Assembly (NCBI GenBank): GCA_028689435.1
Contig: JAQTWD010000002.1
Span: forward strand, 1 to 48,970
DNA length: 48,970 bases
Origin: Minisyncoccota bacterium
GTDB lineage: Bacteria > Patescibacteriota > Minisyncoccia > Phycocordibacterales > UBA12079
Reading direction: 5' to 3'
Shown here: positions 5,563 through 46,187 of the stretch, piece by piece
Position numbering within the stretch: the stretch's first letter is position 1
Layout of the letters: every line of letters begins with the position of its first letter
Program-made: the position numbers and the translations under genes
The notes under the pieces: model-generated
What the model saw: only the letters and a program-made list of their open reading frames with translations
Database searches by the model: none
Told to the model about the DNA's origin: nothing

Positions 5563-5702
5563 TCGTTCCTCGTTGCGCTGGCGCGCAAGTATAAAGTAGT
5601 AAGGTGTAAGTAGTAAGAAACGAAAAAATTTGCGAAGCAAATTTTTTACTTACTCCTTAATCCTTACACCTTGTTACTTGCTTCGAGCTTGGCGAGGAGC
5701 GA
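5563..5702 (+). repeat. hairpin insertion 1 in rnpB (P3 position)
   Basis: TCGTTCCTCG...CGAGGAGCGA closing stem. The interior is a long 'GTAAGTAGTAAG / CTTACTCCTTA' hairpin. Near-identical to insertion 2. Confidence 0.8.
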
Positions 5703-5726
5703 TTGTAAGGAAAGTCCGAACACTCG

Positions 5727-5868
5727 GTCGTTCCTCGTCGCGCTGGCGCGCAAGTATAAAGTAGTAAGGTGTAAGTAGTAAGAAACGAAAAAATTTGCTT
5801 CGCAAATTTTTTACTTACTCCTTAATCCTTTCTCCTTATTACTTGCTCCGAGCGTAGCGAGGAGCGAC
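5727..5868 (+). repeat. hairpin insertion 2 in rnpB (just 3' of the CR-I/P4 strand)
   Basis: GTCGTTCCTCG...CGAGGAGCGAC closing stem. Direct near-duplicate of 5563-5702. Confidence 0.8.
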
Positions 5869-6380: not shown

Positions 6381-6562
6381 TATTTTCTAAAAAACACCAG
6401 TGATATAAAAATTTTGACTACAAATCATACGGTCGTATAATTTGTAGTCAAAATTTTTTTGTTTCTTATGAATTAACCCTTACACCTTAATACTTGCGCG
6501 ACAGCGCTAGGTATTCACACTTTTTTTTAGTTTTTAAAATTTTGCGTTGTATAATAAGCTCA

Positions 6563-16490: not shown

Positions 16491-16613
16491 AAATTTACTA
16501 AAATAAATACTAATCTACGAATTATACTAATAATACGAATGCGATACAAATATTAAAAATAATATACATTAGTAATTATTCGTATAATTTGCATCATTCG
16601 TATATTAGTATGT

Positions 16614-17831
16614 TTACCTCAATAGTTCTATTGCCTTATCCATTTGAGGATCCAAACCATCTTCAAATTGTTCTTGAGTAATCTCGACATTTACATCTGG
16701 CTCTAAACCATTATTTGAAATTGAATTTCCATTTGGAGTAAGCCATTTTGCCACTGTTATCTTTAAAGATGTATCAGGTGTCAAATTGATCAATTCTTGA
16801 ACAGAACCTTTTCCAAAAGTCTTCGTTCCTACAATTTTAGCAATTCCGTGTTCTTTTAATGCACCTGCTAATATTTCAGATGCAGAAGCTGAACCGCCAT
16901 TGACCAGTATAACAAATTTAAGATTGTTATTAAATATATTATATCCCTTACTTCTGTGTACTTTGTCTTCCTCATCAACACCGTAATCCTCGGTCACGAT
17001 TATTTTACCTGCTGGCAAAAACCAACTTGCCATATCTACGGCAGCCTCTAGGTATCCTCCTGGGTTTCCTCTTAGATCCAAAACCAATTTATTTGTTTTT
17101 GATTCTACAAATTCTCTCAAAGCATCTCTGAACAAATTGGGAGAAGTCGCAGAAAAATTATACAAACTGATTATAAAAACATCCCCCCTTTTTTCGGTGT
17201 CTATTGTTGGTATATTTATATTATCTCTGATAACTGAAATTTCTATCAAATCAGCAACACCCTCTCTGGAAATTGTCAGCTTAACTGCAGTTCCTTTTTC
17301 TCCTCTGATAAGTTTTACTGCTTGATCGGTACTAAAATTTGAGGTTATTTGTTCATCAATTTTTATAATCTTGTCCCCTGGTTTTATACCGGCTTTTTCA
17401 GCAGGAGTATTTTTTAAAGGAGAAACGACAGTAATAATTCCGTCTCTTATTCCTATCTCCATACCAACACCACTAAATGACCCTTGAATATCATCGTTAA
17501 ACATTTCGCTTTCAGCAGGTGGCATAAAAACTGTATAAGGGTCTTTATATGAAGAAGCCAACCCTTGGATAGCACCCCATACTTTGTCTTGATCTGTTAT
17601 ATCGTCAGGAGAAACATATTTCTCGTTCAAAATATTCCACGCTCTCCAAAAATCACTGAAATCGGCTTTTGTTGTGTTCAAAGTATCTTCTTTGTTAATA
17701 ACATTGTTTATGGCTTCTGCACCCTTTTTTTGATTTTTTCCAAAATAAAAACCTATTCCAAAAATCAAACTAATTAAAAAAATAGCTACAATAATCGGAA
17801 CAATTTTTTTCAATGATAAATTTTTACTCAT
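16614..17831 (-). CDS. ctpA: S41 family carboxy-terminal processing protease
   Basis: TM anchor, PDZ-like segment (GIKPGDKIIKID), then LRGNPGGYL and GGSASASEILAGAL catalytic motifs. Confidence 0.85.
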   Translation of the reverse strand: MSKNLSLKKIVPIIVAIFLISLIFGIGFYFGKNQKKGAEAINNVINKEDTLNTTKADFSDFWRAWNILNEKYVSPDDITDQDKVWGAIQGLASSYKDPYTVFMPPAESEMFNDDIQGSFSGVGMEIGIRDGIITVVSPLKNTPAEKAGIKPGDKIIKIDEQITSNFSTDQAVKLIRGEKGTAVKLTISREGVADLIEISVIRDNINIPTIDTEKRGDVFIISLYNFSATSPNLFRDALREFVESKTNKLVLDLRGNPGGYLEAAVDMASWFLPAGKIIVTEDYGVDEEDKVHRSKGYNIFNNNLKFVILVNGGSASASEILAGALKEHGIAKIVGTKTFGKGSVQELINLTPDTSLKITVAKWLTPNGNSISNNGLEPDVNVEITQEQFEDGLDPQMDKAIELLR

Positions 17832-17928
17832 CCCGTTAGAAATTTTAATATTTATAATGTCTTAATTTTTTAAAAGTTTAAATATTGTTTATATATATAA
17901 TTCCGTATGAATAAAAATCTCTAACGGG
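17832..17928 (-). mobile_element. TIR element copy B (97 bp) abutting the ctpA start codon
   Basis: Minus strand: CCCGTTAGAGAT...ATTTCTAACGGG, followed directly by ATG. Flanked by identical hexamers ACTCAT (17826-17831 and 17929-17934), which read ATGAGT on the gene strand. Confidence 0.7.
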
Positions 17929-18159
17929 ACTCATATATGCAAAGAATTATATCATAGAGATAATATTTTTATAAACAATATATTTAAACATATTTAAAAA
18001 AATAATGAATCAACAATCTTAAACTTCTCACGATCGTGAAAAGTTTAAGATTGTTTATATTTTTTATATTTTAATTTTGACTACAAATCATACGGTCGTA
18101 TGATTTGTAGTCAATAATTTTTTTATACTTTAATTGTTAAATAAGAAATTAAATGACGA

Positions 18160-29592: not shown

Positions 29593-29685
29593 AAAACAAT
29601 TATAGCAAAACTTTTATTTACTTATTAACATTTTACTTTCTGAAAAGATGGTGTAAAATTTCTTCTTGTGTGTATTTATAATTAT

Positions 29686-29844: not shown

Positions 29845-30173
29845 ATTATAAATTTAAAATGATAAATTATAAATTATGAAAATCTATTTTTACTCAATCC
29901 ATACGGTCGTATGAATTGAGTAAAAATGTTTTTTGCTTAAATTTTGCCCTGGGTTTAGGTTTTAAAGTTTTTAAAATTACAAAATTTATGCGACCGCATA
30001 AATTTTGTAATTTTAATTTTATTTATAAAAACTTAGGTGTATGGTTATTCTTTGCATTGTTAAAGAATTTATAATCTGTTATATTTTTAATATTAATTAA
30101 CAACATCAAATATCTTATTTTTAATTTTACATTGTAATTTTGAATTTTGAGATTTTATTTTTCAATTTAAAAT

Positions 30174-32274: not shown

Positions 32275-32287
32275 ATCTGCAATGAAT

Positions 32288-32406
32288 CCCGTTAGAGATA
32301 ACGGATGAAAAAAAGAGACACTAGCCGAAAGTGATTTATCAATTAAATTATATAAAGATCAGAGGCACGACTTATATATAAAAGTCCGTGTTCTATCTCT
32401 AACGGG
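32288..32406 (+). mobile_element. TIR element copy A (119 bp) abutting the lepB start codon
   Basis: CCCGTTAGAGATA (32288-32300) is the exact inverted repeat of TATCTCTAACGGG (32394-32406). Flanked by ATGAAT at 32282-32287 and ATGAAT at 32407-32412 (the lepB start). Confidence 0.75.
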
Positions 32407-32955
32407 ATGAATAATTCTAATGAAAACTTTTTTGTAGAAGTCTTAAAGTTCTCACTACTTACTTTAATTGTTGTGCTTCCTTTCAGGATGTACATCGCAA
32501 AACCATTTATTGTTGATGGTGCATCGATGAGTCCGACATTTGAAACAGGTCACTACCTCATTGTTGATGAAATCTCGTACAGAATAGAAAATCCTCAAAG
32601 GGGCGAAGTGATAATTTTCAAATATCCGAAAGATCCAAGTCGTTTCTTTATAAAAAGAATTATCGGATTACCAAACGAAACCGTTGAAATAATAAATGGA
32701 AAAGTAACAATCTACAACGAAGAAACGCCTAATGGAGTACATTTAGAAGAAAATTATGTTGAAAAAACATCTCGGGAAAATATAAAGGTTAAATTGGGAG
32801 AAAATGAGTATTTTGTTATGGGAGATAACCGAGGAAATAGCTCTGATTCAAGGTTTTGGGGAGCATTACCAAAAGACATGATTATTGGAAAAGCATTTTT
32901 ACGACTTTTGCCCATTACCAAAATAGATGTATTGCCCGGAAATTTTGATTATTAA
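32407..32955 (+). CDS. lepB: signal peptidase I
   Basis: DGASMSPT (catalytic Ser), KRIIGLPNE (catalytic Lys), GDNRGNSSDSR. Confidence 0.9.
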   Translation: MNNSNENFFVEVLKFSLLTLIVVLPFRMYIAKPFIVDGASMSPTFETGHYLIVDEISYRIENPQRGEVIIFKYPKDPSRFFIKRIIGLPNETVEIINGKVTIYNEETPNGVHLEENYVEKTSRENIKVKLGENEYFVMGDNRGNSSDSRFWGALPKDMIIGKAFLRLLPITKIDVLPGNFDY

Positions 32956-36175: not shown

Positions 36176-36193
36176 TTGCAATTATATTATTTA

Positions 36194-36243
36194 AAATACA
36201 ATCTTAAAATTCTGACGACCGTCAGAATTTTAAGATTGTATTT
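36194..36243. terminator. 24-bp perfect hairpin after ftsA (member of the CGRYCG-centred hairpin family)
   Basis: AAATACAATCTTAAAATTCTGACG-AC-CGTCAGAATTTTAAGATTGTATTT. Confidence 0.75.
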
Positions 36244-36340
36244 CTAATAAACCTCATTTCATATATTGACATAAATAATATATGATTTTATTATTCCACT
36301 CTCCTCTATTTTAGCTTGTTTTTACAGGGTTTTTACTCTA

Positions 36341-40719: not shown

Positions 40720-40794
40720 AAATAAATTATAACAGATAATTATTGTTTTATATTTCCAAACTCACCCTAATTTAATTATTTTAAATTACGAAAC

Positions 40795-40936
40795 GACGTG
40801 GATTGCTTCGCTAAAGCTCGCAAAGACGGTGATAAGAGACGAACAACCTTCGGTTGTTCGTCTTCGCGAGCGACAGCGAAGCGATCCACATCGTCCGTTA
40901 CTATCAGCTATCGGCTATAAGCTATTAGCTTCGTCT
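40795..40936. repeat. right copy of the direct repeat flanking tspO
   Basis: See 40069-40233. Same order and orientation of the hairpin plus the GCTATCAGCTAT-type tail. Confidence 0.8.
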
Positions 40937-43518: not shown

Positions 43519-43997
43519 AAAATCTCTCCTCCTTCTTGTCGATGTTTTGTATTTAAAAAGACATTTTTTCTACAATATAAAATACCATACAAAAAACACT
43601 TCCGTCAATATAAGACTTCAAAATTTACCAAAATCTTGCTTCTGTAGATTTTGAAATAATACATACACAAAAACAAAAATCCTCTCAATTGAGAGGATTT
43701 TTGTTTTTGTGTAGGCTTGTGTCTAACAAGCCAATAAATTTTAATGTCTATTTTTTTCTGCCTGAAAAAATATAAACATATCGTACTGTTTCCATATAAA
43801 AGAATATAACATTTTTTAAAAAAAGAAATGTGTATAACCGAGGTAAACATACTAATATACGAATGACACTAATAATACGAATACTATACAAATGTTGTAA
43901 TTTCGTATTCGTATTGCATTAGTATAATTCGTATCATTTGTATATTGGTATGTCTATCTTAAAATTTAAAAAAATGTATGATATTAACATCATGATT

Positions 43998-44112
43998 CCC
44001 GTTAGAGATCGCGGACACTTGCGGGGAATATTTAACAAAAGAAATTTATTAGAATTAATTTAAATAGATAGTATGCGAGATTTAACAAAGTCCGCGTCCT
44101 ATCTCTAACGGG
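43998..44112 (+). mobile_element. TIR element copy C (115 bp) abutting the tsaD start codon
   Basis: CCCGTTAGAGAT (43998-44009) pairs with ATCTCTAACGGG (44101-44112). Inner helix CGCGGAC/GTCCGCG. Flanks are ATGATT (43992-43997) and ATGAAA (44113-44118). Confidence 0.7.
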
Positions 44113-45348
44113 ATGAAAATATTGGCAATTGAGACATCTTGCGACGAGACAGCAATCAGCATAATTGAAGCAAAAGGAGGACTTAAAAAACCTCAATTCA
44201 AAATCTTGGCTGACACAGTTATCTCTCAAATAAATATCCACAAAGAATATGGAGGTGTCTTCCCCGCTCTTGCAAAAAGAGAACACGTAAAGAACTTACT
44301 TCCGATATTAGGGGAAACTTTGAAGAAAGCGAAGATGCTATCATTTGAAAAAAATCACAAAACACAAATTACAAATTACAAACAAAACACAAAATACAAA
44401 ACACAAATTACAAAAATCAAAAAAATTTTAGAAAGAGAGGTTGAAATGGTTGAGCCTTTGTTAGATTTTTTAAAAAATAACAAAATACCAAAAATAGATG
44501 CAATCGCTGTGACACAGGGGCCAGGACTAGAGCCTGCTCTTTGGACAGGAATAAATTTTGCAAAGGCTTTGGCGTTGGCGTGGGACAAACCTTTTATTCC
44601 TGTTAATCATATGGAAGGACACCTCGTCGCTTCGCTCCTCAAGTTAAAAGTAACAAGTAGCAAGTATAAAGGAGTTGAGTTTCCTGCTCTTGGTTTATTG
44701 ATAAGCGGAGGTCATACAGAGTTAATAATGGTTAAAGATTGGATGGATTATAAATTGATCGGTCAAACCAGAGACGATGCTGTCGGAGAAGCTTATGACA
44801 AGGTAGCAAGAATGCTTGGCCTTCCCTACCCAGGTGGTCCTGAAATATCAAAACTCTCCGAAGAATTTTCTAAAAACTACTCACTACCCACTACTCACTA
44901 CCCACTACCCCGTCCAATGCTTCATACAAACGATTTTGATTTTTCTTTTTCCGGATTAAAAACGGCTGTTTTGTATACCGTTAAAAATATTAAAAACCAT
45001 GCCTACCGGCAGGCAGGAATGACACCCGAAATCAAAAAAGAAATTTGTGCAGAATTTGAAAATGCGGTTGTTGATGTTTTGCTTTTTAAAACGAAAAAGG
45101 CTGTTGCAAAAAATAATATAAAGACATTGATTTTGGGAGGTGGTGTAACCGCAAATAAAAAAATACGAAAAGAATTTAAAAAATTGGAAAAAGAATTAGG
45201 TATTGATGTTTTAGTACCAGATGCAAAACATTCTACCGACAATGCTGTGATGATAGGAATTGCAGGTTATTTTAGATATTTAGATAACAAGGTTCTACTA
45301 CCAAACAAAACAGCAAAGATCAGAGCAGAAGGAAATTTGGCATTATAA
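44113..45348 (+). CDS. tsaD: tRNA N6-adenosine threonylcarbamoyltransferase TsaD, with four in-frame low-complexity insertions
   Basis: IETSCDET, HMEGH, SGGHT, GLPYPGGP and FSFSGLKT motifs. 411 aa versus about 340 aa typical. Confidence 0.9.
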   Translation: MKILAIETSCDETAISIIEAKGGLKKPQFKILADTVISQINIHKEYGGVFPALAKREHVKNLLPILGETLKKAKMLSFEKNHKTQITNYKQNTKYKTQITKIKKILEREVEMVEPLLDFLKNNKIPKIDAIAVTQGPGLEPALWTGINFAKALALAWDKPFIPVNHMEGHLVASLLKLKVTSSKYKGVEFPALGLLISGGHTELIMVKDWMDYKLIGQTRDDAVGEAYDKVARMLGLPYPGGPEISKLSEEFSKNYSLPTTHYPLPRPMLHTNDFDFSFSGLKTAVLYTVKNIKNHAYRQAGMTPEIKKEICAEFENAVVDVLLFKTKKAVAKNNIKTLILGGGVTANKKIRKEFKKLEKELGIDVLVPDAKHSTDNAVMIGIAGYFRYLDNKVLLPNKTAKIRAEGNLAL

Positions 45349-45931: not shown

Positions 45932-46187
45932 ATTGCATTATTATATATTTTAAAAATCTCATACCATCATTTTGCAAAATGACGGTATGAGATTTTTGTA
46001 CAAAAAGTTATTTAACAACTTCTACCTCAATAGCCACTACACCAAAACTTTTTTCATCTTTTGGTTTTGTAATTTGTTTTTTGTGATTTGTTTGGAATTT
46101 GTGTTTTGTGATTTTTGTTTGTATTTTTATCAGCCGTTAATATTTCTGCTTTTCTGAGAACAATTATTAATACAGGAAGCAAATTTT

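Follow-up and report, generated by a model that had tools for sequence, protein, structure and literature searches.

The start of the ctpA gene on contig JAQTWD010000002.1 of a Minisyncoccota bacterium (assembly GCA_028689435.1) is interrupted by a 99-bp element with 13-bp terminal inverted repeats (TIRs), most probably a non-autonomous transposable element of the kind called MITE-like (MITE, miniature inverted-repeat transposable element) that inserted there recently. The window, i.e. the whole stretch of DNA that was analysed, comprises positions 1 to 48,970 of the contig (48,970 nt), and all coordinates of the ctpA element refer to its minus strand. As read from alleles lacking the element, ctpA was originally a near-leaderless gene without a Shine-Dalgarno motif, in which TGaTATAAT is followed after 11 nt by ATGAGTAAA.... 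On this reading, the element entered at A/TGAG/T by a 4-bp staggered integration that duplicated the four bases. The promoter-side copy of this target-site duplication (TSD) keeps the old ATG, which now opens an 18-codon junk upstream open reading frame (uORF), and the gene-side copy, together with the terminal A of the element, rebuilds ATG-AGT and leaves the ctpA frame intact. The parts of the site are as follows.

17946..17975, minus strand: ctpA promoter, TTTATA-18-TGaTATAAT (promoter scan 10/12 plus TG; identical in the empty alleles)
17930..17933, minus strand: promoter-side TSD copy TGAG, forming with the A at 17934 the original, now distal ATG (single-copy in the empty site)
17878..17934, minus strand: by-product uORF from the original start codon, MSPVRDFYSYGIIYINNI and a stop (translation)
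17831..17929, minus strand: ctpA element, 99 bp including the 13-bp TIRs TCCCGTTAGAGAT ... ATTTCTAACGGGA (sequence reading; gap relative to loci L125 and L126; covariance model)
17917..17929, minus strand: promoter-side TIR TCCCGTTAGAGAT (sequence reading; the 13th pair covaries as T..A or C..G family-wide)
17847..17886, minus strand: AT-only 8-bp subterminal hairpin AATATTTA ... TAAATATT, adjoining the gene-side TIR (RNA fold)
17831..17843, minus strand: gene-side TIR ATTTCTAACGGGA, whose final A (17831) is base 1 of the ctpA start codon (sequence)
17827..17830, minus strand: gene-side TSD copy TGAG (sequence; comparison with the empty alleles)
16614..17831, minus strand: ctpA, 405 aa, an S41 C-terminal processing peptidase with a PDZ domain (Pfam; orthologues)

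Read towards the gene, the order on the minus strand is ...TGaTATAAT-tctttgcatat-ATGAGT-CCCGTTAGAGAT-73 nt-ATTTCTAACGGG-ATGAGT-AAAAAT.... The two 12-mer arms (17917-17928 and 17832-17843) agree at 11 of 12 positions, the mismatch placing a G opposite a T. A preliminary description of this site had noted that this difference still gives a G.U pair in the sense RNA, which is correct, and its coordinates for the arms, for the ATGAGT hexamers at 17929-17934 and 17826-17831 and for the TATAAT box at 17946-17951 were right throughout. The promoter scan recovers this box, which carries TGn ahead of it and ends 11 nt before the distal ATG. The uORF described from the distal ATG also translates as given; its M-x-P-V-R-D beginning was correctly read as recurring, but is simply the TIR in frame, the uORF being 8, 18 or 23 codons long among copies. 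The flanking hexamer repeat had been regarded as gene-specific. It is indeed gene-derived, as a TSD should be, but only its central TGAG is duplicated host DNA: the left hexamer consists of a host A, the TGAG duplication and the terminal T of the element, and the right hexamer of the terminal A of the element, TGAG and a host T.

Within the window, the 12-mer occurs 8 times with up to 2 mismatches, compared to 2.05 expected, and none of 100 shuffles reaches 8. Six of the eight matches form three pairs with a spacing of 97-119 bp, each ending exactly at the ATG of ctpA, lepB or tsaD, which bears out the earlier claim of a second copy of an inverted-repeat element exactly at a start codon. That the ATGAGT pair might be a chance repeat of a common kind finds no support, as ATGAGT-N90-110-ATGAGT occurs once in the window against 0.12 expected.

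Next to these counts, empty alleles carry the argument. When metagenomes were scanned with the ctpA protein, two loci (L125 and L126) came up at 96% identity, and their DNA is base-for-base equal to that of the window over about 50 bp upstream and 55 bp downstream. The alignment shows one clean 103-bp gap, i.e. the 99-bp element plus the 4-bp duplication, and the empty site reads ...tatgatataattctttgcatat-ATGAGT-aaaaattta..., so that the same promoter directly abuts a single ATGAGT, the arrangement for which the preliminary description had suggested looking in relatives. The element is also lacking in the ctpA orthologues L120 (94%), L127 (72%) and L124 (71%). In L121-L123 (78%), exactly this position is occupied by another copy, which is 119 bp long and bears a hairpin. 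A covariance model of the family finds just three copies in the window, that at ctpA (52 bits, with this copy among the training sequences) and the following two sister copies.

32287..32407, plus strand: lepB copy, 121 bp with 13-bp TIRs; TSD TGAA at 32283-32286 and 32408-32411 (sequence)
43997..44113, plus strand: tsaD copy, 117 bp; TSD TGAT/TGAA at 43993-43996 and 44114-44117, with one substitution (sequence)

No element is present in lepB orthologues at 90%, 88% and 75% identity, which have the same promoter, TGcTAAGAT-N7-ATGAAT; tsaD orthologues are empty at 87% and 84% and filled at 77%. Over 89 orthologue loci (281 kb), the model finds L121-L123 and L208 only, i.e. two species. Since empty orthologues exist for ctpA, lepB and tsaD, the element is sporadic and mobile rather than an inherited leader, and by this comparison of alleles the ctpA element is a recent insertion. 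In the three window copies, the two ATGs lie 103, 125 and 121 nt apart and are never in frame. No close match that could be the source of the ctpA insert was found among the fetched loci, the best full-length match being 69% identical.

The shortness of the ctpA copy had been attributed to decay or deletion. However, its duplication is perfect and its flanks equal the empty allele for at least 50 bp on each side, which argues that it arrived already short. Copies range from 94 to 124 bp, and short ones of 94-105 bp are known in other genomes; judged from these alignments, the ctpA copy is a member of a short subfamily and not a copy decayed in place.

A family search with an unbiased pattern, consisting of both 12-mers with unconstrained flanks, returned at least 118 genome loci. 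Among the matches listed, the hosts belong to many classes of Patescibacteria, to Omnitrophota, Planctomycetota, Elusimicrobia, Ignavibacteria and others, and viral contigs gave 0 matches to the element termini. The analysis covered 124 copies, 121 in the listed genome loci and three in the window. The base pair just outside the 12-mers is complementary, being T..A in 68/124 copies and C..G in 53/124, and the family TIR is therefore 13 bp long (YCCCGTTAGAGAT); 12 of the 13 pairs are Watson-Crick in the ctpA copy and all 13 in the lepB and tsaD copies. The helix formed by TIR pairing (helix 1) is 98.5% paired over 73 copies. Outside the 13th pair, a 4-bp direct repeat is present in 65/124 copies, compared to 9.8 expected from shuffled flank pairings (p ~1e-38). 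The duplicated 4-mers are TGAA (31), TAAA (9), TGGA (7), TGAG (6) and TCAA (5), among others, and TTAA in 0/65. Based on this covarying outer pair and the 4-bp repeat beyond it, the ctpA element is delimited as 99 bp with 13-bp TIRs and a TGAG duplication, not a hexamer. With its terminal A or G, the element supplies base 1 of the start codon that follows (ATG or GTG). Copies of the C..G type read ATGAAC[E]GTGAAA, with [E] standing for the element, a former ATG gene now starting with GTG; together with the covariation of the 13th pair, this means that the A of the working ctpA ATG is the element's own. The only reading frame in copies of MITE size is the by-product uORF.

A further 18 copies were found when exact termini were not required. 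In these, the core YCCCGTTAGA is constant and the inner three TIR positions covary (GAT/ATC, GAC/GTC, AGT/ACT, GGC/GCC and GAA/TTC). In a Wolfebacteria metagenome-assembled genome (NORP133; L004, 5893-6284), three tandem elements, with ATGAAT separating each from the next, precede one gene, and the central element has variant termini, CCCGTAGTAG...CACTACGGG. From its sequence, this array indicates sister families and repeated insertion at a regenerated target. In L105, CAAG is present as a true duplication. The flanks of the copy in L104 (5285-5381) are inverted instead of direct (ATTCAC[E]GTGAAT), and a partial terminus, TTTCTAACGGGG, is nested within it; this copy may have arisen by palindrome growth or by nested insertion.

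TIRs, a TSD of fixed length (4 bp), small size without a transposase gene and filled/empty polymorphism at ctpA, tsaD and lepB are characteristics of MITEs that the element shows. The family is best described as a MITE with an unusual but well-supported habit, that of occupying translation start sites in several phyla and restoring them. In a 2024 review, prokaryotic MITEs associated with start codons, with candidate phyla or with IS1380 are not mentioned. The family appears not to have been described before, although an earlier description may exist, the literature search being incomplete.

The position of the copies is the most striking property of the family. An ATG or GTG ORF (open reading frame) of at least 50 codons directly follows 69 copies (66 of the 121 genome-locus copies and the three in the window). 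For ORFs of at least 100 codons, 50/59 T..A copies lie 0-20 nt upstream of a start, compared to a fraction of 0.17 for random intergenic positions in the same loci; for C..G copies this is 23/45 compared to 0.20. The 18 copies found without the exact-terminus criterion behave similarly: eight abut a start codon, and three more have a start within 15 nt on the other side. According to a rough count of tolerated TGRR sites, about 5% would be expected at gene starts. T..A copies come nearly all from Patescibacteria, and extended -10 boxes cluster 12-15 nt before their CCCG, i.e. 6-9 nt before the distal ATG, with a strong box in that interval in 25/59 loci versus 2-7 in control intervals. Therefore, the target genes of T..A copies are leaderless or nearly so. 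No such clustering at a fixed distance was seen when a -10 box was sought for C..G copies. In the organism of the window, a Shine-Dalgarno motif precedes only 2-3 of 26 genes and promoters of the TATAAT-N6-ATG type are in use, implying, as far as its genes can be read, widespread leaderless or Shine-Dalgarno-independent initiation. This spacing is seen, e.g., at the P-type ATPase and TspO genes (29593-29610 and 40720-40737).

Other kinds of initiation region are occupied as well. About 10 C..G copies lie between a Shine-Dalgarno-like motif and the start codon, e.g. cGGAGGtttgC[E]GtgaatcATG. In phyla other than Patescibacteria, some copies are located immediately 5' of a Shine-Dalgarno motif ([E]GTAAAGGAG..ATG) and others in ATGA stop/start overlaps, in which the duplication preserves TGA for the upstream gene and creates a GTG downstream. 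The same start can be hit repeatedly, which speaks for an attraction of insertions by the site as such. In two Patescibacteria species, typA/bipA carries copies at the same start (ATGGAT[E]ATGGAA; L003, 2394-2516, and L041, 4711-4828) in opposite orientations, which points to independent insertions at one site, and the ctpA and tsaD starts are filled in distant relatives too. Among hit starts, AA occupies positions 4-5 in 59% (background 24%), and a pyrimidine never occurs at position 5, indicating a sequence preference on top of the start-site bias. No selection on the distal ATG was seen, as decayed duplications keep it in 10 cases and lose it in 9. The downstream genes are diverse, unrelated housekeeping genes. 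A regulon or gene-specific regulator was accordingly rejected: the genes share no theme, the model finds two species among the 89 orthologue loci, and TypA is hit twice.

The following course of events would account for these observations. A trans-acting transposase that makes 4-bp staggered cuts, with a preference for TNRR and especially TGAA, would mobilise the element, and this would most simply be a DDE-type enzyme. In the mRNA, the two TIRs would then pair as a helix of at least 13 bp and loop the insert out, so that the 5' flank (the 5' end itself, or a Shine-Dalgarno motif in other phyla) is re-joined to the true AUG. Such a loop-out would explain how insertions of about 100 nt survive inside the initiation regions of essential genes, and on the predicted folds it is the most economical reason for their viability.

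In these predicted RNA folds, the TIRs form one helix ending at the AUG (dG -26 kcal/mol for ctpA; -40 and -44 for the sister copies), with z-scores from -3.2 (ctpA) to -4.3 over the three window copies. A perfect stem of at least 5 bp adjoins exactly one end in 71/124 copies. This subterminal hairpin has the form NAC-[7-bp stem, 3-4-nt loop]-T-repeat; each of the seven pairs has changes on both sides, about 1% of the pairs are G.T, and the sequence upstream of it holds no information beyond NACG. As these copies were chosen for having a hairpin, only register, flanks and position count as independent evidence. By position, the AT-only 8-bp stem of the ctpA copy is the counterpart of this conserved hairpin. 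The lepB and tsaD copies have a long-range inner helix (ACGGAT/GTCCGT and CGCGGAC/GTCCGCG) in place of the local hairpin, and such a helix is also found, with compensatory changes, in L067, L085, L086 and L118. The hairpin end faces the gene in 46 of 56 informative cases (p ~1e-6). Extension of the terminal helix into the flanks is better in the sense than in the antisense direction by 31 to 3. A consensus scan finds no internal promoter inside the elements.

Several results weigh against a recently mobilised, DDE-type MITE. No TIR pairs more than 400 bp apart were found in the fetched loci or the window, clustering of 509 ORFs from 118 loci gave no recurrent transposase ORF, Pfam detected no transposase among the 26 window proteins, and no autonomous partner was found in about 1.2 Mb of fetched loci and the viral contigs. 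A plasmid BLAST for such a partner returned noise only. Furthermore, about 15 copies have no 4-bp duplication and instead share a recurrent CTTG upstream flank (L008, L016, L025, L028, L046, L055, L070, L074, L078, L084, L089 and L091). On their upstream side these carry CTTG or TTTG plus Y, the gene side showing TGAA or TAAA; often, a purine run resembling a Shine-Dalgarno motif lies immediately 5' of the CTTG. Each of the three window copies is lineage-specific, but their interiors differ greatly, which is unusual for a recent burst from one master, and precise excision in the relatives would fit the patchy filled/empty pattern equally well. A gene-facing, covarying hairpin is unexpected for a purely selfish DDE-type MITE and hints at a single-strand or RNA-level function. 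The flank extension adds little to the loop-out, being no better than with shuffled flank pairings and showing no pairwise covariation beyond flank composition; it may only reflect the composition of the target site.

The start-site bias may stem from targeting or from selection. One version of the former, which we put forward tentatively and with more doubt than belief, is that the family homes to translation-initiation regions rather than being filtered into them. Integration would then pick the first codons of leaderless genes, with cuts near +2 and +5 relative to the transcription start, where the promoter open complex has its downstream edge; Shine-Dalgarno-to-AUG spacers and ATGA stop/start overlaps would be further targets. 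The ends would have evolved a terminal base that restores the start codon (A in Patescibacteria and G in other groups), and the terminal helix would structurally re-join the split initiation region. Conversely, the element might be a mobile leader that benefits its host, the start-site bias reflecting positive selection instead of tolerance, for instance as an RNase III-processed or mRNA-stabilising hairpin, or as a uORF-plus-hairpin device for genes that are leaderless or lack a Shine-Dalgarno motif. The strong enrichment at essential-gene starts, when ordinary intergenic sites should be safer, speaks for this, as do the gene-proximal orientation of the hairpin, its covariation with conserved NAC...T flanks and the precedent of Correia elements, where RNase III cuts at the repeats and downstream genes are influenced (PMC10969869, PMC2649163). 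However, the element occurs sporadically, close relatives manage well in its absence at each of the three window genes, its downstream genes have no common theme, uORF lengths and the distal ATG are not conserved, and a conserved internal promoter was sought and not found. A beneficial leader is therefore rather unlikely.

An alternative concerning the mode of movement is that a hairpin-recognising HUH/Y1 enzyme, REPIN/RAYT-like or IS200/IS605 PATE-like, moves the element as single-stranded DNA, without a DDE-type enzyme. The entire element is a hairpin, its subterminal stem-loop is conserved in structure and not in sequence, with few G.T pairs, the inner three TIR positions covary between subfamilies, and no TIR-flanked transposase was found. 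Against this, direct repeats of a constant 4 bp but varying sequence are the mark of staggered double-strand cuts, and IS200/IS605 elements and REPINs are not known to make a regular target duplication. The ends form a 13-bp perfect inverted repeat, compared to the asymmetric left and right ends of IS200/IS605, and covariation of the arms is not specific, since both ends of any repeat-bounded element co-evolve with its transposase. We therefore consider such movement improbable. Even less credible is a process at the RNA level, in which the insert and one repeat are excised, or the ribosome shunts or hops between the identical AUG-AGU sites, restoring the original leaderless message. This would suit identical take-off and landing sequences around a stable helix, targets of leaderless type that need a 5'-terminal AUG, and a predicted helix that sets the 5' end beside the true AUG. 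There is, however, no ribozyme or intron signature and no Rfam match. The direct repeat is fully explained as a DNA TSD that decays neutrally in older copies (e.g. ATGATT versus ATGAAA at tsaD), and C..G copies have different codons on the two sides. Finally, a vertically inherited cis-regulatory ctpA leader of riboswitch or attenuator type, or a chance palindrome, deserves hardly any credence. A structured 5' region does directly precede the AUG, with the fold z-score of -3.2 given above, but the ctpA orthologues at 96%, 94%, 72% and 71% identity are empty, which already refutes an inherited leader. The same element precedes unrelated genes, the 12-mer pairs go far beyond chance and no Rfam family matches. 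In Rfam searches at gathering thresholds and at permissive E-values, only tRNAs reach the gathering score, and the best sub-threshold match is a generic long-hairpin miRNA model. A curated cis-regulatory RNA was likewise rejected, the orthologous leaders lacking the element.

Among known systems, the closest functional analogue appears to be the Correia/NEMIS family. Correia elements are about 100-150 bp long, bounded by inverted repeats that form a hairpin and located mostly just upstream of genes, and in them RNase III cuts at the repeats with an effect on downstream expression (PMC10969869, PMC2649163). Correia elements are co-transcribed, and co-transcription with the gene would be a further likeness, being for the ctpA-type element part of the proposed loop-out. 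In the literature, Correia elements have 26-bp repeats, a TA duplication, promoters and an IHF site, and are limited to one genus (Neisseria), whereas the ctpA-type element has 13-bp repeats and a 4-bp TNRR duplication, crosses phyla, shows no internal promoter consensus, inserts inside the start codon or ribosome-binding region and donates a start-codon base. Membership in Correia/NEMIS thus failed on repeats, duplication and host (Patescibacteria and other phyla). With piggyBac/IS1380, the element shares a 4-bp duplication, termini starting with CCC and clean empty sites; TAAA or TCAA serves as the target of piggyBac variants, for which IS1380 is used as a prokaryotic outgroup (PMC10813416). 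It differs in an extra covarying Y..R pair between duplication and CCC, so that the duplication does not abut CC(C), and in the lack of TTAA, the piggyBac target, among its duplications. As no such transposase was found either, membership is not claimed. The TIR CCCGTTAGAGAT resembles CCCTAGAAAGATA, which we take to be the piggyBac repeat, and this likeness serves as a lead only.

REPINs/BIMEs mobilised by RAYT are also hairpin-forming, non-coding doublets of about 100 nt, built from an inverted, conserved sequence, with many copies and no linked transposase. REPINs lie mostly downstream of genes, whereas the ctpA-type element is located at the start codon and makes 4-bp duplications. REPIN/RAYT or IS200/IS605 PATE membership was rejected on these regular duplications and the symmetric 13-bp ends, as opposed to asymmetric hairpins or GTAG-flanked REP sequences. 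An integron attC site was rejected as well. Such sites, which lie at the 3' ends of cassettes, start with RYYYAAC (5') and finish with GTTRRRY (3'); here, the polarity is reversed (GTTAGAG 5', CTCTAAC 3'), and it is the 5' ends of housekeeping genes that the element occupies. In phage T4, genes 38 and 25 have a hairpin that loops out between Shine-Dalgarno sequence and AUG. This stable hairpin re-joins the separated halves of the initiation region, and by analogy the same would explain copies between a Shine-Dalgarno motif and AUG. The T4 hairpins are small, fixed parts of their genes, whereas the ctpA-type element is mobile DNA, with a loop-out predicted from folds. Rickettsia palindromic elements also enter essential genes as palindromic mini-elements without destroying them (PMC10969869), but are read through in frame and add peptide segments, whereas the ctpA-type element is never in frame and rebuilds the start codon.

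The family is mobile DNA living in the most sensitive 10 nt of essential genes, in tiny, dense genomes. It makes a second copy of the start signal, contributes one base to the start codon and would fold itself out of the message. With invariant termini and free interiors, it can serve as a cross-phylum marker of horizontal transfer among groundwater lineages (Patescibacteria, Omnitrophota). It is also an annotation hazard, as gene callers may choose the distal ATG or miss leaderless starts. Pairs of filled and empty alleles provide a natural test of leaderless or Shine-Dalgarno-independent initiation with a structured insert. If the targeting is true, the transposase of the element would be a start-site-specific integration tool, and if the family does home to initiation regions, it could serve as a brake or switch on essential-gene translation in reduced genomes, one that is reversible and spreads horizontally.

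Other repeats are present in the window. Long, near-perfect intergenic palindromes centred on ACG..CGT or CG lie at 17992-18075, about 18085-18122, 6407-6458, 29879-29934, 29971-30016, 36187-36250, 43664-43713 and 45952-45997. The two upstream of the ctpA promoter are kept in the empty-site relative L125. These intergenic palindromes probably represent terminators or a further family of repeats. A second, unrelated family of small repeats consists of inverted arrays rich in TACGAAT/ATTCGTA; these lie at 16507-16611 (between rplI and the stop codon of ctpA) and 43860-43950 (upstream of the tsaD promoter), and are also present upstream of tsaD in L205 and L207. TsaD itself (44113-45348) has 411 aa and matches the Pfam TsaD family in two stretches, the best being 122-382, which suggests an insertion within the protein. 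GC-rich GCGAAGC/GCTTCGC hairpins stand out at 547-616, 5616-5819 and 40793-40894 in the otherwise AT-rich genome.

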